Positions 655 through 17,233 of a stretch of 24,000 nucleotides of DNA are shown here, one piece after another (within the stretch, counting starts at the first letter, position 1; the number at the start of each line of letters is the position of its first letter). The position numbers were made by a program, and so were the translations under genes. The stretch comes from a candidate division WWE3 bacterium CG_4_9_14_0_2_um_filter_35_11 (GTDB lineage Bacteria > Patescibacteriota > WWE3 > 2-01-FULL-39-13), in contig PFSJ01000019.1 in assembly GCA_002789015.1 (NCBI GenBank), forward strand, positions 26,012-50,011. The letters run 5' to 3'. Below the pieces are notes generated by a model. It was not told the DNA's origin. It saw nothing but the letters and a program-made list of their open reading frames with translations, and made no database searches.

Positions 655-1736
655 TAGTACTTAGGCAAATAGCTCTGAAAGTTTGAAGAATCAATAACAA
701 CTCTATCCGTTTTCTTTTCAACAATTTCAAGCGCTGCTTTTCTAGCCATATTTTCTAAAGTTCTTTGCAAGGATCTTATTCCACTATCAAAACCCAGAGG
801 CCTTAGGATTGAAGCCCAAACGTCACTTGAAAACTCAAGCTGAGATTCATCAAGACCTGTCTCTGCTCTAACGCGTGGCAATAAATAATCTCTTGCAATT
901 ACTTGCTTTTCATCATCTGTATATGAAGGCATTCTGATAACTTCCAAGCGATCTAAAAGCGCCGCACTAAATGTCCCTATTTTATTTGCGGAAACAATAA
1001 ACATAACCTTAGACAAATCAATCGGGAAATCAAAATAGTGATCTCTAAATGAGGTATTTTGTTCTGGATCTAAAACTTCAAGCATCGTGGCCATAATGTC
1101 AGCTAAAAGTCCACTTTGACCACTCGCTTTATCTAACTCATCTAGTAAAATTACCGGATTTCTAACACCAGTTCGAATAATTGCTTTTATGATTTGTCCT
1201 GGCTCAGCACCTTCAACAGCTTTATCCCTTCCTCTAATTTCAAGAACAGATCCGATAGCTCCCATTGAAACTCTATAAAACGGTCTATTTAAAGCTTCAG
1301 CAATACTTTTTGCCATTGTTGTTTTACCAATACCTTGAAGACCAACCATACATATAATTGGTGACCTATCAACAGCCTTGAAATCTTTCTTTTCAAAAAG
1401 CAACTGTCTAACAGCTAAATATTGAGCAATTCGATCTTTTACAACATCAAGTCCATAATGATTTTTATTTAGCACAGTTCGTACTCGATTTATGTCAAAA
1501 ACTTCTTCTGCGGTTTTTGTCCAAGGGAAAGAAACAATCCAATTAATATAATTGCTAATAATGTCGTGTTCTCTTGAGTAAACTCCTGACTCAGACATCT
1601 TCTCTAACCTACCCAGCATTGCCAAGCAAGTAGTTTTCAATTCGTCCGGAGCATCCACTGAGTTTAATTTTGATTTCAAAACCTCTATTTCGTCTAAATT
1701 TTTTAAATTCCCAATGGACGGGACAGATTGATTCAT
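654..1736 (-). CDS. Lon-like AAA+ ATPase module without the N-terminal LON domain and without the protease domain
   Basis: 360 aa. Walker A GLQGIGKTT, Walker B ILLDELDK, LEVLDPEQN, FIVSAN (sensor 1), LLDRLEVI (Arg finger) and GIRSLQR (sensor 2). All closely follow the Lon A-type ATPase consensus. The protein ends where the Lon protease domain would begin. Confidence 0.85.
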   Translation of the reverse strand: MNQSVPSIGNLKNLDEIEVLKSKLNSVDAPDELKTTCLAMLGRLEKMSESGVYSREHDIISNYINWIVSFPWTKTAEEVFDINRVRTVLNKNHYGLDVVKDRIAQYLAVRQLLFEKKDFKAVDRSPIICMVGLQGIGKTTMAKSIAEALNRPFYRVSMGAIGSVLEIRGRDKAVEGAEPGQIIKAIIRTGVRNPVILLDELDKASGQSGLLADIMATMLEVLDPEQNTSFRDHYFDFPIDLSKVMFIVSANKIGTFSAALLDRLEVIRMPSYTDDEKQVIARDYLLPRVRAETGLDESQLEFSSDVWASILRPLGFDSGIRSLQRTLENMARKAALEIVEKKTDRVVIDSSNFQSYLPKY

Positions 1737-1742
1737 AAGTTG

Positions 1743-1751
1743 ATTCTAGCA
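1743..1751 (-). promoter_or_regulatory. Extended -10 box TGCTAGAAT, 6 nt upstream of the ATG at 1736 (leaderless-type promoter)
   Basis: The minus strand reads TTATTGTGCTAGAATcaacttATG. No Shine-Dalgarno sequence fits in the 6-nt gap. Confidence 0.55.
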
Positions 1752-1796
1752 CAATAAATTCAACCAATTTAACGTGTAGACGATCGGTTTTAATCC

Positions 1797-1805
1797 TGAT
1801 AACAT
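1797..1805 (+). promoter_or_regulatory. Extended -10-like box TGATAACAT, 7 nt upstream of the ATG at 1813
   Basis: The plus strand reads TGATAACATctggataATG. It has the same geometry as the other operon-first genes in the window. Confidence 0.4.
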
Positions 1806-1812
1806 CTGGATA

Positions 1813-2121
1813 ATGCCAAAACAAGATAATTCGTTCGATTACGATTTCAACGACGACGACACAACAGATTCATCGGTTCGCGTAAGCGACAATGAAGAAG
1901 CCTCTCGTGATGACTATCTAAATAAGCTTGGGAAAGTAATTGAGCAAGTTCAGGATGAATTAGAAGCTGAAGCGGATAGCGACGATACTATTTTTGTTGA
2001 TCCAGAGAAAATAACAGAAGCGATAGAAACTTTGACAGAATTACTTCACATTAGATCAGAACAACTTGCCGAAAAAGACTTACCTACTCACGTAGACGAA
2101 AAAGTCGAAGAATACAGATAA
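1813..2121 (+). CDS. Small, highly acidic hypothetical protein (102 aa)
   Basis: The ORF fills the gap between divergent and convergent neighbours. By my count 32 of 102 residues are Asp/Glu and 10 are Lys/Arg. A -10-like box sits 7 nt upstream. I recognise no family. Confidence 0.45.
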   Translation: MPKQDNSFDYDFNDDDTTDSSVRVSDNEEASRDDYLNKLGKVIEQVQDELEAEADSDDTIFVDPEKITEAIETLTELLHIRSEQLAEKDLPTHVDEKVEEYR

Positions 2122-2123
2122 GC

Positions 2124-3503
2124 TTAAACAATCCTCATAAATAAATTTTCTGAATGTATTTCCCCTGTTATGATTTTTTCTATTTTTGATGATGTTTCCG
2201 GCATGATCGGAGCAATCAGACCTACAACCTCTAGGATTTTTTCGATTGCTGTATCTATTACAAGCTTTTGAGCTTCTCCTTCTAACTTCCACGGAGCTTC
2301 TGTGCTGAAATAATCATTAGCTGATCGAATAAGCTCTTGAACACTTGTTACTACTTCATTTAACTTAAAGTCCTCGTATGACATATTTATAAGGGCTACC
2401 CTTTCTTTTAAGGGGCTACCCTCATTTATAAACTTAGCCACTCTCGAAACCAAATTTCCTAATCCATTGGCTAAATTTGAATTATATTTTTCGTCAAACC
2501 ATTTCATACTGACATCACTATCGTCAGAATATGGCATACTTGCAGCAAGTAAATATCTTGTACCATCTACTCCATACCTATCAATCAAGTCTTGCGGAGA
2601 TATCACATTACCCAATGACTTTCCCATCTTGCGACCTTCAACATTATAATATCCATGAACAAAAATTCTTTTTGGCAAAGGTAAATCCAAAGCCAATAAA
2701 AGTGCTGGCCAAATTACAGAATGGAACCAATTATTACCCTTTCCTAAAAAATGCACATCTGCAGGCCAAAACTCTTCCTTATTCCAAAACTTTGTCGCAG
2801 AGTAATAATTCATCAGCGCCTCTATCCATACATAAGTTGTATGTGATGTATCCCACGGAATCGGAATCCCCCACGCAACATTTTGTCTTGAAGCCGACAA
2901 GTCATTCACGCCTTCATTAATTCTAGACAACATTTCGTTCTTCTTATTTTCTGGCTCTACCAAAAGCTCTTTACTGTCGATTAGTTCTTTAACCTTTGGA
3001 ATATATTTCGACAATCTAAAAAAGTAGTTTTCTTCTTCTTTGTACTCAATCTGGTCTGGCCTGTGTTCTGGACATTTTCCATCCACTAAATCTTTTTCCG
3101 ATTTAAATTCTTCACATCCCCAACAATAAATACCTTTGTAGACACCTTTGTAGATATCGCCTTTCTCCTGAAGCTTAATCAATAACTCCTTAACAATTTT
3201 TTCATGTCCAGGTAATGTCGTTCGCATGAATTGATCGTTACTTATATTTAGCTTTTTCCAGTATTCCTGCCATTTTAATGCTAATTCATCTACGAACTCT
3301 TGAGGTTTTTTGGATGCCATTTCTGCTGCCTTTGCAACTTTTTCCCCGTGCTCATCGGTTCCTGTTAAAAAGAAAACCTCCTTGCCTTGCGATCTTTGAT
3401 ATCTTGCAATGATATCTGCAAAAACGGTAGTTCCAGTATGCCCAATATGTGGAACATCATTTGAGTAATAAATAGGAGTTGTAATATAAAAACGCTCTGA
3501 CAT
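2124..3503 (-). CDS. metG: Methionyl-tRNA synthetase (short form, no C-terminal tRNA-binding domain)
   Basis: 459 aa. HIGH motif (VPHIGHTGT), KMSKS variant (RKMGKSLGN), zinc knuckle CWGCEEF..CPEH, WGIPIPWD and the anticodon-domain LGNLVSR helix. Confidence 0.95.
   Translation of the reverse strand: MSERFYITTPIYYSNDVPHIGHTGTTVFADIIARYQRSQGKEVFFLTGTDEHGEKVAKAAEMASKKPQEFVDELALKWQEYWKKLNISNDQFMRTTLPGHEKIVKELLIKLQEKGDIYKGVYKGIYCWGCEEFKSEKDLVDGKCPEHRPDQIEYKEEENYFFRLSKYIPKVKELIDSKELLVEPENKKNEMLSRINEGVNDLSASRQNVAWGIPIPWDTSHTTYVWIEALMNYYSATKFWNKEEFWPADVHFLGKGNNWFHSVIWPALLLALDLPLPKRIFVHGYYNVEGRKMGKSLGNVISPQDLIDRYGVDGTRYLLAASMPYSDDSDVSMKWFDEKYNSNLANGLGNLVSRVAKFINEGSPLKERVALINMSYEDFKLNEVVTSVQELIRSANDYFSTEAPWKLEGEAQKLVIDTAIEKILEVVGLIAPIMPETSSKIEKIITGEIHSENLFMRIV
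2385..2431. repeat. Mini-element copy A: ATTTATAA|GGGCTACCCT-N10-GGGCTACCCTC|ATTTATAA, inside metG
   Basis: Exact 10-mers at 2393-2402 and 2413-2422 (starts 20 bp apart). Perfect 8-bp direct repeats at 2385-2392 and 2424-2431. Core plus one flank is 39 bp, or 13 codons. Confidence 0.8.
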
Positions 3504-3509
3504 AACAAA

Positions 3510-3518
3510 AGTATATCA
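3510..3518 (-). promoter_or_regulatory. Extended -10 box TGATATACT, 6 nt upstream of the metG ATG (3503)
   Basis: The minus strand reads TGATATACTtttgttATG. The same 9-mer precedes the aldolase and GH1 genes. Confidence 0.55.
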
Positions 3519-3528
3519 TCTGCAAATA

Positions 3529-3538
3529 AGGCTACCCC
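3529..3538. repeat. Possible degenerate solo copy of the 10-mer (GGCTACCCCT), intergenic
   Basis: The plus strand reads aaATAAGGCTACCCCTATCTTATgg. It shares GGCTACCC with the GGGCTACCCT unit and is flanked by ATAA and TTAT. Confidence 0.3.
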
Positions 3539-3542
3539 TATC

Positions 3543-3962
3543 TTATGGCTCTAGCCGACGAATTCCAGAAACACCATCAAAGTCCTTATCGTAAGTGTAT
3601 ATATCTTTTAACCCATTTTCATCCATGTATGCAACGTTATATGCATCTTCAAAATCGACCTTCGATTTAGATAAAATACCGAGGGCTTTTATAACAAGGT
3701 ATTTTTCGTCTATTTTGAGATTTGGAATTAGAATTATTGGAAGCAATAATTCAACGATTTCACTACCTTGGATTTTATACAACTGTGGAGATTTTAAAAC
3801 ATAAAACACTTCTGCTATTACTAAAATTGAGGTTCTTAAATTTAGCTTCCCGTCTTTAGCACCTTCAAAAATTTTTTTACACTGTCTAGACTTTAGCTTG
3901 TCATCGCTAGTTAAATATCTTATGAAAATATTTGTATCAACGAATTTCCCTTCTGTGATCAT
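3543..3962 (-). CDS. vapC: PIN-domain toxin, VapC family
   Basis: 139 aa. Acidic PIN residues occur in FVDTNIF, IAEV, FEDAY and YDKDF. Its ATG overlaps the upstream antitoxin stop (ATGA). Confidence 0.85.
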   Translation of the reverse strand: MITEGKFVDTNIFIRYLTSDDKLKSRQCKKIFEGAKDGKLNLRTSILVIAEVFYVLKSPQLYKIQGSEIVELLLPIILIPNLKIDEKYLVIKALGILSKSKVDFEDAYNVAYMDENGLKDIYTYDKDFDGVSGIRRLEP

Positions 3963-4225
3963 TGAGTCTCCTTGCTACTTTTATAATCTTTTGCTATCTT
4001 GACCATCTCTTCTACTGTAAGTAATTTCTCAAGTGGAGGCAAAATACCATATACATCATCTAGAGAATATTTTGAAGAAGTCAAAACAACAGCGCCATCA
4101 TCCTCAATGCTATACACAACAACATCGCCGGATTTAACTCGCAAAGCATCTCTTACAACAACAGGCAATGTGATTTGCCCTTTCGAACTAATTTTTGAGA
4201 CATACGAAGTCTTTACTTTTTTCAT
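3959..4225 (-). CDS. vapB: AbrB/SpoVT-type antitoxin, VapB-like
   Basis: 88 aa. SKGQITLPVVVRDALRVKSGD is a swapped-hairpin AbrB/MazE-type motif. It lies upstream of, and overlaps by 4 nt, the PIN gene. Confidence 0.8.
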   Translation of the reverse strand: MKKVKTSYVSKISSKGQITLPVVVRDALRVKSGDVVVYSIEDDGAVVLTSSKYSLDDVYGILPPLEKLLTVEEMVKIAKDYKSSKETQ

Positions 4226-5266: not shown

Positions 5267-6352
5267 ATGGATTCAACTATTCTTTTTATATCTTCAATGT
5301 TTGTTAGCGTTGCCCTTTTTGGAACGATTTTCTATTTCATGCAACAACAATTCAAAAAACTTCAAGATGGAAATCAAAATGAAAAGAAAGATGAAATCTT
5401 AACTAAATGGCTTGAAAACATGCAAGGAACAATGGATATGCGTCTAAAAAATGTTCAAGATCAACTTCACCAAACAACGTCAACATTAAATGATCGCGTC
5501 GATGAATCTTCCAAAAGCATGAACTTTCGACTTGATAAAGCCGCCGAAGTTATAGGAAATGTCCAAAAAGAATTAGGTTCTATGAGTGAAATCGGACGCG
5601 GCATGAAAGATCTACAAGACTTTTTAAGATCGCCAAAATTGCGAGGCAATATTGGCGAAGAAATACTCAAAGACCTTTTAGAACAAATGATTCCATCCGA
5701 AAATTACATGCTCCAGCACACCTTTTCTACAGGAGATCGCGTTGATGCACTTTTAAAAGTGGAAGAAGGATATATTTCTGTAGACTCAAAATTCCCGATG
5801 GAAAACTTTAACCAAATGTCTCAAGCAGAAAAACAAGAAGACCGAGAAACAATTCGAAAAACATTCACAAGAGATGTCAAAAAACACATTAGCGATATTT
5901 CTAAAAAATACATATTGCCATCTGAAGGAACCGTTGATTTTGCCTTAATGTATATTCCAAGCGAAGCAATTTACTACGAAGTCGTTGTGAACAATCCAGA
6001 ACTCGGAAAATATTCATGGAGTCAAAGGGTTTTACCTGTTTCCCCAAACGTTTTTTACTCATATTTAAAAGCAATATTAATCGGACTTGAAGGCAAAAAA
6101 GTCGAATCAAGAGCAAAAGAAATACTTGCAGCAATAAGAAGCATAAAAGAAGACTCAATCAAATTCTCTGACTCACTTAGGGTTATGACAAAACACATTT
6201 CAAATGCAAAAAACAGCGCTGATGACGTTACAAAGAACTTTGAAAGATTAGATAACAGAATTGGAGGACTCGACAACATAGGACGAATCGGAGACAGAAA
6301 AATTGCTGAAGTAGTTAAAGGAAGCGAACAACCAGAACTAATAGAAAACTAA
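5267..6352 (+). CDS. rmuC: DNA recombination protein RmuC
   Basis: 361 aa with an N-terminal TM helix and a coiled region. LRSPKLRGNIGEEILKDLLEQ and ALMYIPSEAIYYE are typical RmuC blocks. Confidence 0.85.
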   Translation: MDSTILFISSMFVSVALFGTIFYFMQQQFKKLQDGNQNEKKDEILTKWLENMQGTMDMRLKNVQDQLHQTTSTLNDRVDESSKSMNFRLDKAAEVIGNVQKELGSMSEIGRGMKDLQDFLRSPKLRGNIGEEILKDLLEQMIPSENYMLQHTFSTGDRVDALLKVEEGYISVDSKFPMENFNQMSQAEKQEDRETIRKTFTRDVKKHISDISKKYILPSEGTVDFALMYIPSEAIYYEVVVNNPELGKYSWSQRVLPVSPNVFYSYLKAILIGLEGKKVESRAKEILAAIRSIKEDSIKFSDSLRVMTKHISNAKNSADDVTKNFERLDNRIGGLDNIGRIGDRKIAEVVKGSEQPELIEN

Positions 6353-6744
6353 GGTTCTTTTACCTTTATCTCTGAAACCTTTGCGAGTTTTTTATCATAT
6401 GAATAAATCGCATCAACACCGACTTCTATACCCATCGCAATTTCGTACGCATCTATAAATTCGATGTTTTCCTTTACCCAAATATCAAGGGCTAATCTTA
6501 AGGCTTGTTTATTAGTAACTACAGATTCAGATTCGATTACAGCAACTAACATTTCCTCGATGGCATCTGAATCTAATTTATAAAATGAAGATAAAACCCA
6601 TACACATTCGGCGACAACAACATCCAAAAGGAGTACCCTATCATTATTGGAGCTCAATAATTTCTTAACTTTAGTTGCCTTAGCTAGATCATCTTTTACA
6701 AAAAACCGAATAAGTAAATTTGTATCAATTATTGCAAACGCCAT
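6349..6744 (-). CDS. vapC: PIN-domain toxin, VapC family (second copy)
   Basis: 131 aa with IIDTNLL, VAEC, FIDAY and YDKKL. It has the same architecture as the 3543-3962 protein, including the C-terminal EP ending. Confidence 0.85.
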   Translation of the reverse strand: MAFAIIDTNLLIRFFVKDDLAKATKVKKLLSSNNDRVLLLDVVVAECVWVLSSFYKLDSDAIEEMLVAVIESESVVTNKQALRLALDIWVKENIEFIDAYEIAMGIEVGVDAIYSYDKKLAKVSEIKVKEP

Positions 6745-6998
6745 TTCTTTTTGTATAAATCAACTACATGCTCACGCGCAATTTTATGGATATCAATTTC
6801 ATCAATGGGTTTACCACTTTTAACAGAACCCATAACCTCATCCAATGACTTAACTTTTTTCAAAACAACTTCGTTTTTCAAGTTAATTGAAAAGGTCACC
6901 TTATCAGAAGGCTTAATGCCAAGGCTATCTCTTACATATGAAGGAAGCGTAACCTGATATTTGGTTGTAAGTTTAGAAGACGCGTTCATGGCATACAT
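6729..6998 (-). CDS. vapB: AbrB/SpoVT-type antitoxin, VapB-like (second copy)
   Basis: YQVTLPSYVRDSLGIKPSDKV is an AbrB-type motif. The track ORF begins at a TTG at 7025. I prefer the in-frame ATG at 6998 (or 6989), but the start is uncertain. Confidence 0.7.
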   Translation of the reverse strand: MYAMNASSKLTTKYQVTLPSYVRDSLGIKPSDKVTFSINLKNEVVLKKVKSLDEVMGSVKSGKPIDEIDIHKIAREHVVDLYKKKWRLQ

Positions 6999-7033
6999 GA
7001 TACATTGAGGTATACCAAAAGACAATGGGTATA

Positions 7034-13259: not shown

Positions 13260-14489
13260 CTACAGTTTTAATTCGCCAGTTTTACATATTTCCGAATAAT
13301 ATTTGAATGATGGCCGTTTACTTCTTTTTAAAGTTTTCCTATCAACTCTTACCAAACCAAAACACGGCCAAAAGCCATGATGCCATTCATAATTATCTAA
13401 AAGTGACCAATGAAAATATCCTTTCAAATTGACACCTTTGTCTATCGCTTTTACACAAGATTCCAACATATCTCGAATAAAAGACTCTCTTTTTTCATCC
13501 TTATCGTCGGCAAGACCATTTTCGGTCACGAAAATATCAACACCATATTTTTTGAGTGATAAAAGCACATTCTCAAGCCCTTTTGGATATATCCACCAAC
13601 CCAAATCATTTGTAACATCATCTGGATTTTTTGTTTTTAGATTCTTGATTCTATTAGTAAAGTAATAATTTAAGCCAATTACGTCGAATTTATTTTTTAC
13701 GAGGAGGAAGAAAAATCCACTGCCGATGAAATTTAAAAATTTTGCCACTACATGATCTAATGGATTTTTTGATGATTTTGAAACCTCATGCCAGACAATG
13801 TTTTTGACAATTCCTATTATAGGGGCTACCCTTTTTTTAGAAGGGCTACCCTTTATGTCATCATATGCCCTATTATTTGCTCTAGCTAAATTGATTTGCA
13901 CCCACAATGATAAAACAGCACTTACTTTATTTGGCGGCCAAATTCCGTGGAAATATGACATATACACATAAACTTGAGGCTCATTTATTGTCAAAAAGAC
14001 ATCGATTAGATCATAAAATTCTTCTGCGCATTTTTTTGCATATTTCGCAAAATAACTTGGTGCATTAACATTCGTCCACCCACCGATTTTCGAAAACCAA
14101 ATTGGATTTGTGAAATGATGTAGAGTAACAAAAGTTTTCAAACCTCGAACTTTTGCAGCTTTTAGAACCTTTTTGTAGTGCAATATTTCTTTCTCATCAA
14201 AATTGCCTTGAGTTGGCTCTATTCTTGCCCATTCAATAGAAATTCGAACTGCATTGTTATTTAAATCAACACATAAATCAAAATCTTCCTCATATCGATT
14301 ATAGGAATCACATGCAATGCCAGATGCTTCCAATGGGAATTCTCTTTCAGAAACTACACCCGAACTTTGCGAAAAATATTTTTTAGATTGCTCCCATTCC
14401 CACCAATCAGAATTTGTATTATTACCTTCTATTTGATGTGCTGAAGTTGCTGTTCCCCAAATAAAATCTTTTGGAAAAGTATAATTCAC
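13260..14489 (-). CDS. GH1 family beta-glucosidase
   Basis: 409 aa. FPKDFIWGTATSAHQIEG, TINEPQV (acid/base) and FVTENGLAD (nucleophile). GTG start. Confidence 0.92.
   Translation of the reverse strand: MNYTFPKDFIWGTATSAHQIEGNNTNSDWWEWEQSKKYFSQSSGVVSEREFPLEASGIACDSYNRYEEDFDLCVDLNNNAVRISIEWARIEPTQGNFDEKEILHYKKVLKAAKVRGLKTFVTLHHFTNPIWFSKIGGWTNVNAPSYFAKYAKKCAEEFYDLIDVFLTINEPQVYVYMSYFHGIWPPNKVSAVLSLWVQINLARANNRAYDDIKGSPSKKRVAPIIGIVKNIVWHEVSKSSKNPLDHVVAKFLNFIGSGFFFLLVKNKFDVIGLNYYFTNRIKNLKTKNPDDVTNDLGWWIYPKGLENVLLSLKKYGVDIFVTENGLADDKDEKRESFIRDMLESCVKAIDKGVNLKGYFHWSLLDNYEWHHGFWPCFGLVRVDRKTLKRSKRPSFKYYSEICKTGELKL
13817..13856. repeat. Mini-element copy C: TTAT-AG-GGGCTACCCT-N10-GGGCTACCCT-TTAT, inside the GH1 gene
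   Basis: Exact 10-mers at 13823-13832 and 13843-13852. TTAT is present on both sides. The element adds 36 bp (12 codons), read as KGSPSKKRVAPI. Confidence 0.75.
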
Positions 14490-14495
14490 ATTCGC

Positions 14496-14504
14496 AGTAT
14501 ATCA
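14496..14504 (-). promoter_or_regulatory. Extended -10 box TGATATACT, 6 nt upstream of the GH1 GTG (14489)
   Basis: The minus strand reads TGATATACTgcgaatGTG. This is the third occurrence of this exact 9-mer at a gene start. Confidence 0.5.
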
Positions 14505-14521
14505 CGACAGATCGAGACACT

Positions 14522-14560
14522 TTATGAGGGCTACCCTTGTTTTTTAGGGGCTACCCTTAT
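14522..14560. repeat. Mini-element copy D: TTAT-GA-GGGCTACCCT-N10-GGGCTACCC-TTAT, at the 3' end of the kinase gene
   Basis: Exact 10-mers at 14528-14537 and 14548-14557, with TTAT at 14522-14525 and 14557-14560. The kinase stop codon (14531-14533) lies inside the element. Confidence 0.75.
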
Positions 14561-15205
14561 TGTAAAGATCGTCCCATGGTTTTCCCCGACATTACTTTTC
14601 ACGGTAATCTTTCCACCAAAATCTTTTTCAATAATTGATTTACAAATATAAAGGCCAAGGCCGCAATTATTATTTAATTCCCCTTTTGTCGAAAATCCAT
14701 TTTTAAAAACATCTTTCAAAATTCCTTGTGGAATACCTGGCCCATTATCCTTAATTTCAATTACAACCGACTCTTTAGACCTACCGGAATCAACCATTTT
14801 TACAGCTACAATTATCCAAACATCCTTTCCACCAGCCTCGATTGAGTTCTTGAAAAGATTGCAAATCACTCTTTTGAACTTTAACTTATTTCCATGCAAA
14901 AAATGCTCATTACCGAAGCGGTAGATAAAGTTGTTTTTCTTAAAGTTCCCACACACAGACGATATCGCATCATTAACACCAAACTCCTCATTCTTATTTT
15001 TACCAACGGGAGCGACACTAACTAATTCCTTTATATAACCCAACGATTCATGGATATCACTCAAATTTTCGAGTACATTCTGACTATCAAAATTTAAATT
15101 TCGATTTTTCAGATCTAGCAAACATTCGCACGAAATAATAGCTGAAGTTAACGGACTTTTAATGTCGTGAAGAATCTCGTCACTTTTGCTTGAGGACTTT
15201 CTCAT
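14531..15205 (-). CDS. Histidine kinase core (HisKA + HATPase_c) with no sensor or TM region
   Basis: 224 aa. H-box LHDIKSPL at residue 13, N-box NLFKNSIEA, G1 DNGPGI, F VFKNGFST and G2 GLGLYICK. A GAGGAG Shine-Dalgarno sequence lies 4 nt before the ATG. Confidence 0.85.
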   Translation of the reverse strand: MRKSSSKSDEILHDIKSPLTSAIISCECLLDLKNRNLNFDSQNVLENLSDIHESLGYIKELVSVAPVGKNKNEEFGVNDAISSVCGNFKKNNFIYRFGNEHFLHGNKLKFKRVICNLFKNSIEAGGKDVWIIVAVKMVDSGRSKESVVIEIKDNGPGIPQGILKDVFKNGFSTKGELNNNCGLGLYICKSIIEKDFGGKITVKSNVGENHGTIFTIRVAPKKQG

Positions 15206-16370
15206 AAATCTCCTCTAAATCATATGCTTTCGAATCCCAGCTATAATATTTTTCAATTATCTTTTTTGTTTCTGCATATCTATCAGGCTGAGCGTCAATT
15301 TTTAAAATTGCATCAGCCAATTCCTTAGCATCGATTTTCTCTAGGTATAACAAATTGGGGACATCAACAGTCAACTCAAATCCCGAAGCAACGACTTTGT
15401 TTCCACACGTCAATGCCTCGATTACAACTTTTGGCAATCCTTCGTGACTAGATGGCAATACAAAAAATTCGGCGCTTCTATAATATTTATGAGCAATAAA
15501 GTTGCTAACTTTCCCAAGATATTTGATACGAGATTCCAGATTATATTTTTTTATCAATGGATTTACAATTTCGTCTCTAAAGTCTTCGTCCCAAATACCA
15601 ACCAAAGATAATTTGAATTGAGTTGGCAAATAATGCAAGGATTCGACCAAAACATCAATATTTTTCCTCTTGCTAAGCCTCCCTATATTGAAAATAATCT
15701 TGTCATCACTTGAAAATCCTAAATCAACTTTCTCTCCTTCTTTTGCAAACCTATCCAAACTAACTGAATTTTCAACGACAACGATTGGAACCCTTGGGTT
15801 ATAAAATCTTTTCATTTCATCAACTAAACCAGTGCTAACAGCGATTAAAACTTTGGCGACCTTAGTGGACAGCAAGTCATTAAATTTCCAAATTGGATAT
15901 TCAAAGTATTTTGTCCAAAAATCCAAAGTTTGCCCCTGCTCTAGTGACGTTTCCTCACGACCCTTAATCGATCCATGATTAGTATGAACAACAGGAGTCT
16001 TATCAATAAATCCAAACAGATATTTGTATAACAAAAACCACACGCCCATTTGCTGGTGGTTGTGCACTATATCTATTTTTTTGAAAATCTTAAGGTAAGA
16101 ATAATACGGCAAGACGAAAAGCGATGTTGACAAAAATGGTCCAAATCGCCAAATAGCTCTCGGAAGATTATAAACCGTAATATTATTAGCTAATTTGTAG
16201 CTCAGTTTCCCTTGCTTCAGATTCTTTCCATTTAGATTACCGGTGAGGACGTATATTTGATTCCCCTGTATCTTTCCCTGAGCTATTGTTAAGTCGTATG
16301 GTCCGGGTGATAAACCTTCAGTTTGGACATTCTCGTCGGCAAAATCATAAATTATTCGGAGGATATTCAT
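15180..16370 (-). CDS. GT4-family (GT-B fold) glycosyltransferase
   Basis: 396 aa. C-terminal EGLPKVVIEALTCG (E-x7-E motif). Its length and layout are typical of GT4. Confidence 0.8.
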   Translation of the reverse strand: MNILRIIYDFADENVQTEGLSPGPYDLTIAQGKIQGNQIYVLTGNLNGKNLKQGKLSYKLANNITVYNLPRAIWRFGPFLSTSLFVLPYYSYLKIFKKIDIVHNHQQMGVWFLLYKYLFGFIDKTPVVHTNHGSIKGREETSLEQGQTLDFWTKYFEYPIWKFNDLLSTKVAKVLIAVSTGLVDEMKRFYNPRVPIVVVENSVSLDRFAKEGEKVDLGFSSDDKIIFNIGRLSKRKNIDVLVESLHYLPTQFKLSLVGIWDEDFRDEIVNPLIKKYNLESRIKYLGKVSNFIAHKYYRSAEFFVLPSSHEGLPKVVIEALTCGNKVVASGFELTVDVPNLLYLEKIDAKELADAILKIDAQPDRYAETKKIIEKYYSWDSKAYDLEEIYEKVLKQK

Positions 16371-17233
16371 AGTAATAACGCTCCTCCAATTAAACTAACC
16401 GTCAACCTCACTACATGCATCATTAATGAAACCGTTATTGAGACTTCCGAAGTAACCCCAACTCCGTTAAACAAAAATGCATATACGGTTTCTTGAGTTC
16501 CAAAGCCGTTAAATGAAGGAATCAAAAGAGAAAGCGATGCAATTGGCATGTACGCAAAAACGCCCCAAAGTGGCAATGTAATTCCCATGCCCATGAATAA
16601 TACATACGATGTGGCAAAGGATATCATTTGAACCAAAAATGAATATAAAATGACCATCGAACCATTTTTCTTGTCCTTTACGAAAAGGTCGCTCGCCCGT
16701 TTGAATTTATTCAAGAATTTAATTTTTTTGGAAAATAAATTTAAAACAGGAAAATATAGTGCTAATCCAATTACTAAAATAGCCGTTGCGGCTAAAACCC
16801 CAACAACTCCATACATAGATGAAATTCCAAATAGCCCAATTATAAGGAGTACAATAAGTCCACTAAATCTATCCATAAATACGCTAAAAAGCGCAGTTGC
16901 TTGGTCTTTGATTATATTCCCCAAACTTACGGACTTATAAACATCACCACCCATTTGTGTAGGCAAAAAGTTGTTATAAAAATAACCTTTTATATAGAGC
17001 TTAAATAAATCAATAACTTTAACGTGAACTTTGGAGGTAGACAGAATTGCTTGCCATCTTAAACTTGAAACTAATGTCCCCGATAAAAGCAAGATCAAAG
17101 CGAAAATTATAAATATAGGATTGTATGATAAAACTCCAAGTCTAATCTTTTCAAAATCTTGAGTATAAAGTAGATACGAAATCAAACTTACGCTTATACC
17201 GACACGAATAAGTGTTTTAAAAACTTTTCCCAT
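16367..17233 (-). CDS. Flippase-like / lysyl-PG-synthase-TM (UPF0104) family membrane protein
   Basis: Polytopic with an LRWQAIL block. I prefer the ATG at 17233, one nt after the upstream stop, over the TTG at 17296 used by the track. Confidence 0.6.
   Translation of the reverse strand: MGKVFKTLIRVGISVSLISYLLYTQDFEKIRLGVLSYNPIFIIFALILLLSGTLVSSLRWQAILSTSKVHVKVIDLFKLYIKGYFYNNFLPTQMGGDVYKSVSLGNIIKDQATALFSVFMDRFSGLIVLLIIGLFGISSMYGVVGVLAATAILVIGLALYFPVLNLFSKKIKFLNKFKRASDLFVKDKKNGSMVILYSFLVQMISFATSYVLFMGMGITLPLWGVFAYMPIASLSLLIPSFNGFGTQETVYAFLFNGVGVTSEVSITVSLMMHVVRLTVSLIGGALLL

Follow-up and report, generated by a model that had tools for sequence, protein, structure and literature searches.

The window examined here is the whole 24,000-nucleotide stretch of DNA (GC content 34–37%), and its main subject is a 40-bp sequence that lies within a gene for a GH1 beta-glucosidase. 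A preliminary description, made from the letters alone, had proposed this sequence as the second in-frame copy of a mini-element also found in metG, the gene for methionyl-tRNA synthetase (MetRS). The MetRS protein is 100% identical to that of WWE3 bacterium CG_4_9_14_0_2_um_filter_35_11. The 40-bp GH1 sequence proved to be a genuine copy of a small dispersed repeat; the copy is inherited, lies in frame and consists of two 20-bp units with the core GGGTAGCCC. The host genes and the repeat copies in the window are as follows:

2124..3503, minus strand: methionyl-tRNA synthetase (metG), host gene, 459 aa.
2386..2426, minus strand: metG copy, a direct doublet with cores at 2413-2421 and 2393-2401; encodes EGSPLKERVALI in the variable linker before the anticodon-binding domain.
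3529..3537, minus strand: single degenerate unit GGGTAGCCT with flanks ATAG/TTATTT, 26 nt upstream of the metG start codon, between a PIN toxin gene and metG.
13260..14489, minus strand: GH1 beta-glucosidase, host gene, 409 aa, with the catalytic motifs TINEP (E170) and VTENG (E323) intact.
13816..13856, minus strand: GH1 copy, two 20-bp units in direct orientation, their cores GGGTAGCCC lying at 13843-13851 and 13823-13831; encodes K213-I224 (KGSPSKKRVAPI).
14521..14561, minus strand: third copy, where the HATPase_c gene ends; its two units form a direct doublet, and the gene takes its stop codon from the TAG of the second core (14531-14533).
14531..15205, minus strand: HATPase_c-domain protein, host gene, 224 aa, with its C-terminus and stop codon supplied by the element.

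On the plus strand, positions 13817-13856 read TTATAG GGGCTACCCT TTTTTTAGAA GGGCTACCCT TTATGT. The 10-mer GGGCTACCCT occurs six times in the window, every time paired 20 bp apart (2393/2413, 13823/13843 and 14528/14548), and the three resulting copies of GGGCTACCCT-N10-GGGCTACCCT lie in metG, in GH1 and at the HATPase_c stop codon. The 10-mers, the 20-bp register and the match to metG were thus confirmed. In dinucleotide shuffles the 10-mer had a mean count of 0.25, and none of 100 shuffles reached six; the 9-mer GGGYAGCCC had six matches in the window compared with 0.09 expected. The top repeat family of the window (D1) comprises three copies of 41 nt. The 70 nt around the GH1 copy were identical in six independent assemblies of the source species (JGI, ENA and Logan), so an assembly artefact is excluded; together with the shuffle statistics, this ruled out a chance or artefactual origin of the repeat. 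Two short contigs of the source species (L056 and L061) start inside GH1 just past the element, at residues ~221 and ~229, and the repeat may contribute to these assembly breaks.

The translation across the GH1 copy is ..AYDDIKGSPSKKRVAPIIGIVKN.. (open reading frame (ORF) 13260-14489, minus strand) and that across the metG copy is ..FINEGSPLKERVALINMS.. (minus strand). The GH1 copy is read as GSP-x4-RVAP, and the tail of the HATPase_c protein, RVAPKKQG*, is likewise encoded by the element. The preliminary description had argued from reading-frame arithmetic that, in the sense orientation, only the order GSP then RVA is open, and that the metG and GH1 copies encode near-identical peptides; both statements held.

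The position of the GH1 copy in the protein was evaluated using an AlphaFold (AF2) model, which has a mean pLDDT of 88.7 and a TM score of 0.87 to 1vff (P. horikoshii beta-glycosidase; sequence E = 2.4e-72). In the model, helix 191-214 is joined to strand 224-230 by a coil of residues 215-223, where pLDDT dips locally to 79. The insert (residues 214-224) is thus modelled as the alpha4-to-beta5 loop, at the N-terminal end of barrel strand 5, which agrees with its earlier placement just before a conserved beta-strand. Alpha-to-beta loops of TIM barrels face opposite the active site. By this general geometry the insert is predicted to face away from the catalytic residues Glu170 (TINEP) and Glu323 (VTENG), and it would be tolerated because the loop sits on the non-catalytic face of the barrel.

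Among the GH1 homologues compared, the cores are common only to an 86%-identical protein (P0001, locus L009), whose element codons read AAG GGT AGC CCT TAT AAA GAA GGG GTA GCC CCT; the GH1 element is therefore lineage-specific and inherited. By this comparison, the copy appears to have been present already in the common ancestor of the window species and this relative. Outside the immediate clade the orthologue alignment lacks the segment, and it is not conserved in unrelated taxa. Cores are absent from the next relatives (74–80% identity), in which the loop has 12 residues (AVHKSKKLKVPK; L012 and L014, both close relatives) or 8 residues (ADLGSAPS), and all more distant GH1 proteins have a 7-residue loop, SVNxxYx. 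As the loop of the window protein has 11 residues, the net gain over the outgroups is ~4 residues, and the 36 bp or 12 residues said to have been added do not stand. The small net length change from a ~40-bp element may mean that some sequence was deleted at the same time, or that the loop had already changed before the insertion. We also considered the L012 and L014 loops as decayed elements, but the DNA similarity of ~50% is uninformative in AT-rich sequence.

After a scan of public genomes and metagenomes for exact matches to the 30-mer pattern, contigs of relatives with conserved synteny (the loci numbered with L) were inspected. The family recurs throughout one WWE3 (Katanobacteria, Patescibacteria) clade: the window and its relatives together (183.5 kb) contain 39 unit clusters, a census of clade contigs rather than a whole-genome copy number. 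The consensus from 19 distinct direct doublets is tAAATAA-GGGTAGCCC-YT.T...aaAA-GGGTAGCCC-YTATt, and the 20-bp building unit is aaWAA-GGGYAGCCC-YTaT. Units are nearly always paired at the exact 20-bp register, arranged as ++, -- or +-; unit triplets at 17–19 bp spacing are also present, as are mixed-core clusters at one junction. A variant core carries GCAG in place of GTAG. In frame inside the UvrD helicase gene, a variant core (GGGCAGCCC/GGGCTGCCC) forms a perfect 13–15-bp palindrome. In the exact-pattern scans, matches in low-GC Patescibacteria were confined to this WWE3 group. Viral contigs gave zero exact matches, and a phage origin was set aside on this basis.

Matches to the 30-mer in high-GC taxa (Collinsella, Mycobacteriaceae, Paralimibaculum and Bacteroidetes) were not accepted as family members, since these taxa are unrelated and the matches are probably a coincidence from a very large collection. 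They are true 20-bp-period tandem repeats with a unit starting AGGGTAGCCC, seen in L001, L003-L006, L008, L016, L017, L020, L028, L029, L035, L036, L043 and others. There are ~10 separate families of this kind, which is above expectation.

Clusters in the WWE3 clade fall into three classes: intergenic, at gene 3' ends, and deep inside Pfam-validated genes. The intergenic ones often lie 2–8 nt before a start codon. At the 3' ends of the HATPase gene (window), the LPG synthase gene (L013) and a Y1 transposase gene, the TAG of the core is the stop codon. In-frame intragenic copies occur in at least nine different genes, in both orientations:

metG and GH1: sense orientation, read GSP..RVA.
Mur ligase, class-V aminotransferase, a GT2 and a methyltransferase: antisense orientation, read GYP..ATL or ATL..GLP.
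UvrD and a GT1: mixed orientation.
UvrD palindrome: L047 14216-14245, ~0.7 kb beyond window position 1, and L046 9807-9839; encodes ..RAAPANAGAAL.. and is conserved in two lineages.
Intein-containing protein (L041): single unit.

In the antisense orientation of the element all three frames are open, and this orientation is in use. The statement that all copies share one orientation relative to their host genes therefore holds for the three window copies, all of which are in the coding sense, and fails in relatives, where those in Mur ligase, aminotransferase, GT2, methyltransferase, GT1 and UvrD are antisense or mixed. This distribution also bears on whether selection acted on the protein, with GSPxKxRVA being a peptide module that has a function in its host proteins. 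The near-identity of the metG and GH1 peptides and their conservation in relatives would suit such a module. However, the same DNA lies in non-coding spacers, over stop codons and in antisense (GYP..ATL, ATL..GLP), the cores keep the rare GC-ending codons AGC, AGG and GCC in a 35% GC genome, and the GH1 peptide is in a low-confidence loop far from the active site. We regard selection of the peptide as highly improbable.

The flanks were analyzed for a target-site duplication, as the preliminary description had read TTAT on both sides of the GH1 copy as a decayed one. This reading was not upheld: 5' ATAA and 3' YTAT recur across the 19 distinct copies, so the TTAT flanks belong to the element consensus. 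A duplication would be expected of an ordinary miniature inverted-repeat transposable element with terminal inverted repeats, moved by a DDE transposase and now decaying in genes. The elements are indeed short, dispersed and AT-flanked, and the metG copy is flanked on both sides by TTATAAAT in the window and by ATAAATG in L012. However, these repeats are explained by the element consensus together with palindromic AT-rich flanks: TTATAA is itself palindromic, which makes a direct repeat ambiguous, and no duplication is consistent across the 19 copies. In addition, no DDE transposase with these ends was found in ~180 kb, the sole transposase associated with the units being of the Y1 class, and the cores do not decay. 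Y1 transposases are a class that makes no target duplications. An element of the ordinary inverted-repeat kind is thus very unlikely.

Several sites differ by 30–50 bp among relatives, including the HATPase end (window compared with L012) and the junction between the LPG-synthase and GT4 genes (L009 compared with the window). At the latter, two to three units in differing arrangement are found in four relatives:

Window 16367-16400, minus strand: LPG-synthase/GT4 junction, empty.
L009 4623-4651, L012 1587-1633, L013 3481-3525 and L014 2933-2976: the same junction, filled.

Units at this single site seem to have been gained, lost or rearranged more than once. At the strain level, no presence/absence polymorphism of the element was seen among 10 contigs of the source species. 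Exactly at the site of the third window copy (~14490-14560), L009 (6483-7649, minus strand) and L014 (4757-5929, minus strand) have a 388/390-aa ORF between HATPase_c and GH1. This ORF has no match in Pfam, NCBIfam or PADLOC and no flanking units, and no link to the repeat was established; the ORF is missing from this site in L012 and L013, and so are intact cores.

The repeat is associated with a transposase gene in relatives, a feature that was absent from the preliminary description, as were the preference for gene ends and the conservation of the cores at the nucleotide level. On L041, a contig from the same metagenome as L009 that carries 10 cores in 11.8 kb, a 186-aa ORF (3090-3650) matches Pfam Y1_Tnp (PF01797) with E = 3e-13. 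Its best NCBIfam match is the REP-associated tyrosine transposase (RAYT) model NF047646 (E = 5.8e-11, 42.5 bits), compared with 0.012 and 15.8 bits for the IS200 model; REP denotes repetitive extragenic palindromes. All 26 Y1 homologues have the HUH motif (H87-F-H89), Tyr130 and the YIHxNP motif unchanged. A ++ doublet lies ~55 nt upstream of the L041 gene, and a +- doublet overlaps its last codons (..KWIKRVAP*) and stop. L050 and L051 repeat this arrangement of flanking doublets, with Y1 proteins 81% and 78% identical, and the L051 sample also contains the window strain. The Y1 gene stands beside rplL-rplJ-rplA in four lineages (59–99% identity). It appears single-copy on these contigs, which come from incomplete genomes. 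The C-terminus of homologues at 45–52% identity is still KGYPF or KGLPF, as the core reads in antisense, and one of these homologues (L052) is bracketed by two AAAAAAGGGTTACCCTTT units that are not spread within 20 kb. Immediately upstream of the L041 transposase gene is a 696-aa ORF with an intein splicing domain (917-3007); it contains a single in-frame unit (..NMRVAPEG..), and its TAG abuts the first core of the upstream doublet (..TTAG-GGGTAGCCC).

Because the same units flank a syntenic Y1 (HUH) transposase that matches RAYT best, we read the repeat as similar to REPs and to REPINs, which are pairs of REPs. The GH1 sequence is likely one copy of a lineage-specific REP/REPIN-like family in this WWE3 clade, and a RAYT-type Y1 transposase is the most likely agent of its spread. 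An IS200-like Y1 (HUH) tyrosine transposase of RAYT type, encoded by a single-copy gene, would mobilise the units. If it works like the enzymes of IS200/IS605 and like E. coli TnpA-REP, its substrate would be single-stranded DNA and no target duplication would result. The source genome presumably still carries the gene. Copies would land at gene ends or in dispensable protein loops because these genomes have almost no intergenic space, and only stop-free, in-frame copies would survive, the GH1 copy being tolerated as a loop opposite the active site.

The metG copy was used to evaluate how strongly the cores are conserved. It is common to four lineages and lies in the linker that leads from the LGNLVSR helix to the anticodon-binding domain; this linker varies in length and in this clade is if anything shorter than in outgroups. 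All 18 core bases (18/18) are invariant across the four lineages, between which third-codon identity is 0.58–0.60; the spacer, the flanks and the neighbouring residues vary. Gene-wide, 23% of third positions are invariant (conserved four-/six-fold-degenerate codons), giving P ~7e-4 for the five core third positions. The cores are therefore constrained at the nucleotide level, and the constraint, as estimated from these alignments, exceeds what a passively decaying insertion predicts. Mainly for this reason, the cores may have a function, as a Y1 binding site or in a host-level role.

The same data could be explained if the units did not move and served on the chromosome as sites bound or recognised by a protein, such as one of the nucleoid, of segregation or of DNA uptake; selection or biased uptake would retain them wherever coding tolerates them. 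Each unit would then be a dimer-binding palindrome, and a pair would stand two helical turns apart. Each unit is in fact a 17-bp quasi-palindrome (ATAAGGG-TAG-CCCTTAT), and the spacing is strictly 20 bp in any orientation. Invariant metG cores amid freely drifting spacers and flanks fit this explanation, as do intragenic copies that replace variable loops rather than just lengthening them. However, the Y1 gene is bracketed by the units in three lineages, and in more distant lineages the units overlap its 3' end. Several sites also differ in length by 30–50 bp between relatives, the triplets and mixed-core clusters at one junction suggest turnover, and no candidate binding protein was identified. 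We consider binding sites of this kind rather unlikely; they are compatible with a domesticated RAYT/REP system and hence not fully exclusive of a mobile family.

The folding of the element was also analyzed. The core GGGTAGCCC differs from its own reverse complement only in the central triplet, so two units in direct orientation also make up an imperfect inverted repeat. Folded as sense RNA, the three window copies reach -14.8 to -16.8 kcal/mol (z = -1.9 to -3.6). Inverted (+-) doublets fold well (z = -3.0), and the UvrD variant as single-stranded DNA reaches -22.5 kcal/mol (z = -6.2). In the doublet fold GTAG forms a U.G / A.A / G.U stem interior. By eye, the core-flanking bases show no evident covariation, so a one-unit hairpin beyond GGG/CCC is unsupported. 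A hairpin for the GH1 copy is plausible. An Rfam scan of the whole window gave no RNA family at gathering thresholds.

Several results weigh against a REP/REPIN-like family spread by a RAYT-type transposase. The RAYT model score of 42.5 bits is below the curated cut-off of 80. Profile matches of the Y1 protein to the PDB are weak and fail to separate ISDra2 TnpA (0.003) from TnpA-REP (0.007), and a direct phmmer comparison with the PDB gave no match. No Y1 transposase was found in the window or demonstrated in the metagenome-assembled genome of the source, and no close NCBI homologue turned up. The GH1 and metG regions are not simply longer than in outgroups, and no clean pair of filled and empty sites was found that would fix the insertion boundaries and the target site. 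The hairpin of the GH1 copy is weak, both as DNA (-6.9 kcal/mol, z = -1.7, with 13/200 shuffles as good) and as RNA (-14.8, z = -1.9). Spacers differ between copies and cores are identical, which simple recent transposition does not predict. Finally, GTAG is central in the 9-bp WWE3 core (GG-GTAG-CCC) and is not the unpaired stem-end tag of the GTAG REP super-family (Di Nocera et al. 2013).

Two other differences among relatives concern neighbouring genes. Two MazE/PrlF-PIN toxin-antitoxin pairs (window 3543-4225 and 6349-7025, minus strand) adjoin metG and RmuC and vary among relatives: L046 and L012 have only one each, not in the same place, and the PIN gene of L052 is located elsewhere again. 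FtsK differs between strains of the same species, with 648 aa plus a 71-aa antisense ORF in L047 (14764-17041) and 755 aa in L048/L049 (7292-9559).

RAYTs with REPs/REPINs have been described as a single-copy, syntenic Y1 transposase flanked by a dispersed repeat (PMC5581495, PMC3733652). GTAG REPs have been reported at gene 3' ends, with TAG as stop codon and with some intragenic copies, including in tRNA-synthetase and UvrD-type genes (PMC3733652). The WWE3 family resembles the E. coli REP and TnpA-REP pair and the Pseudomonas REPINs in that 20–40 bp GC-cored imperfect palindromes with GTAG are dispersed mostly as doublets, sites favour positions downstream of or between co-directional genes, with TAG stops and occasional intragenic copies, and a syntenic, apparently vertically inherited Y1 HUH transposase is flanked by repeats (here in relatives L041, L050 and L051). 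Like the GTAG REP super-family, its copies lie downstream of ORFs and supply TAG stops, and some lie inside ORFs. It differs in that doublets are direct as often as inverted, the 20-bp register is rigid, the stems are very short, the share of in-frame intragenic copies is high, the host belongs to the Patescibacteria, or candidate phyla radiation (CPR), and the transposase falls below the NCBIfam RAYT cut-off. A REPIN is two inverted REPs forming one long hairpin (Bertels and Rainey 2011), whereas the GH1, metG and HATPase copies are direct (++) doublets; other members of the family do have REPIN-like inverted doublets, namely those in UvrD, at L009 4623 and where the transposase gene ends (3'). 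A literature search of incomplete coverage found no REP/RAYT-type system reported in Patescibacteria and no earlier description of the motif.

Other repeat systems were compared with the WWE3 family as well. In the IS200/IS605 family and the gene-less palindrome-associated transposable elements, a Y1 HUH gene is bracketed by small hairpins, mini-derivatives are mostly end hairpins, and no target duplication is made. The L041 Y1 gene is similarly bracketed by units within ~660 bp (3008-3665). However, it is syntenic in four lineages and appears single-copy rather than multi-copy, and the score favours RAYT (5.8e-11 against 0.012). Rickettsia palindromic elements, from the work of Ogata et al. 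in 2000 and summarised in PMC3733652, are reportedly selfish palindromic repeats that sit in frame in essential genes of a reduced genome, in surface loops, and are inherited. The WWE3 repeat is alike in behaviour only, with in-frame copies in its host genes and the GH1 copy in a loop, and has no relation to them in sequence or size. RPE-1 is 100–150 bp long and encodes 30–50 residues, and to our knowledge it has no dedicated transposase; the WWE3 repeat, in contrast, encodes 11–13 residues and has a candidate transposase. DNA uptake sequences (DUS/USS) and iterated palindromes of the HIP1 type are 9–10-bp motifs in coding and non-coding DNA, in both orientations, that favour tolerant frames or variable regions and are often paired. 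The WWE3 cores share with them a 9–10-bp motif perfectly conserved in coding and non-coding DNA. However, those motifs arise by substitution without length change, are 10–100 times denser, and have no link to a transposase or a 20-bp doublet.

Patescibacteria (CPR) have genomes of ~1 Mb that are gene-dense and generally poor in mobile DNA. The WWE3 family shows how such a repeat behaves where there is almost no intergenic space, that is, at gene ends, where C-termini and stops are rewritten, and in loops of housekeeping enzymes (MetRS, UvrD, Mur ligase and GH1). For annotation, recurrent inserts of 11–13 residues in CPR proteins could be mistaken for lineage-specific functional motifs. Perfectly conserved cores amid saturated synonymous sites make the family a compact test case for REPINs as selfish, tolerated or beneficial. 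We tentatively suggest, as a less likely possibility, that the cores are under host-level purifying selection even in essential genes and that the RAYT-REP pair has been domesticated, with a cellular role and as a recurrent source of new loops and C-termini. Equally tentative candidates for that role are mRNA 3'-end or translation control and chromosome organisation. If host-level selection is indeed at work, the RAYT-REP pair would be more than tolerated selfish DNA.

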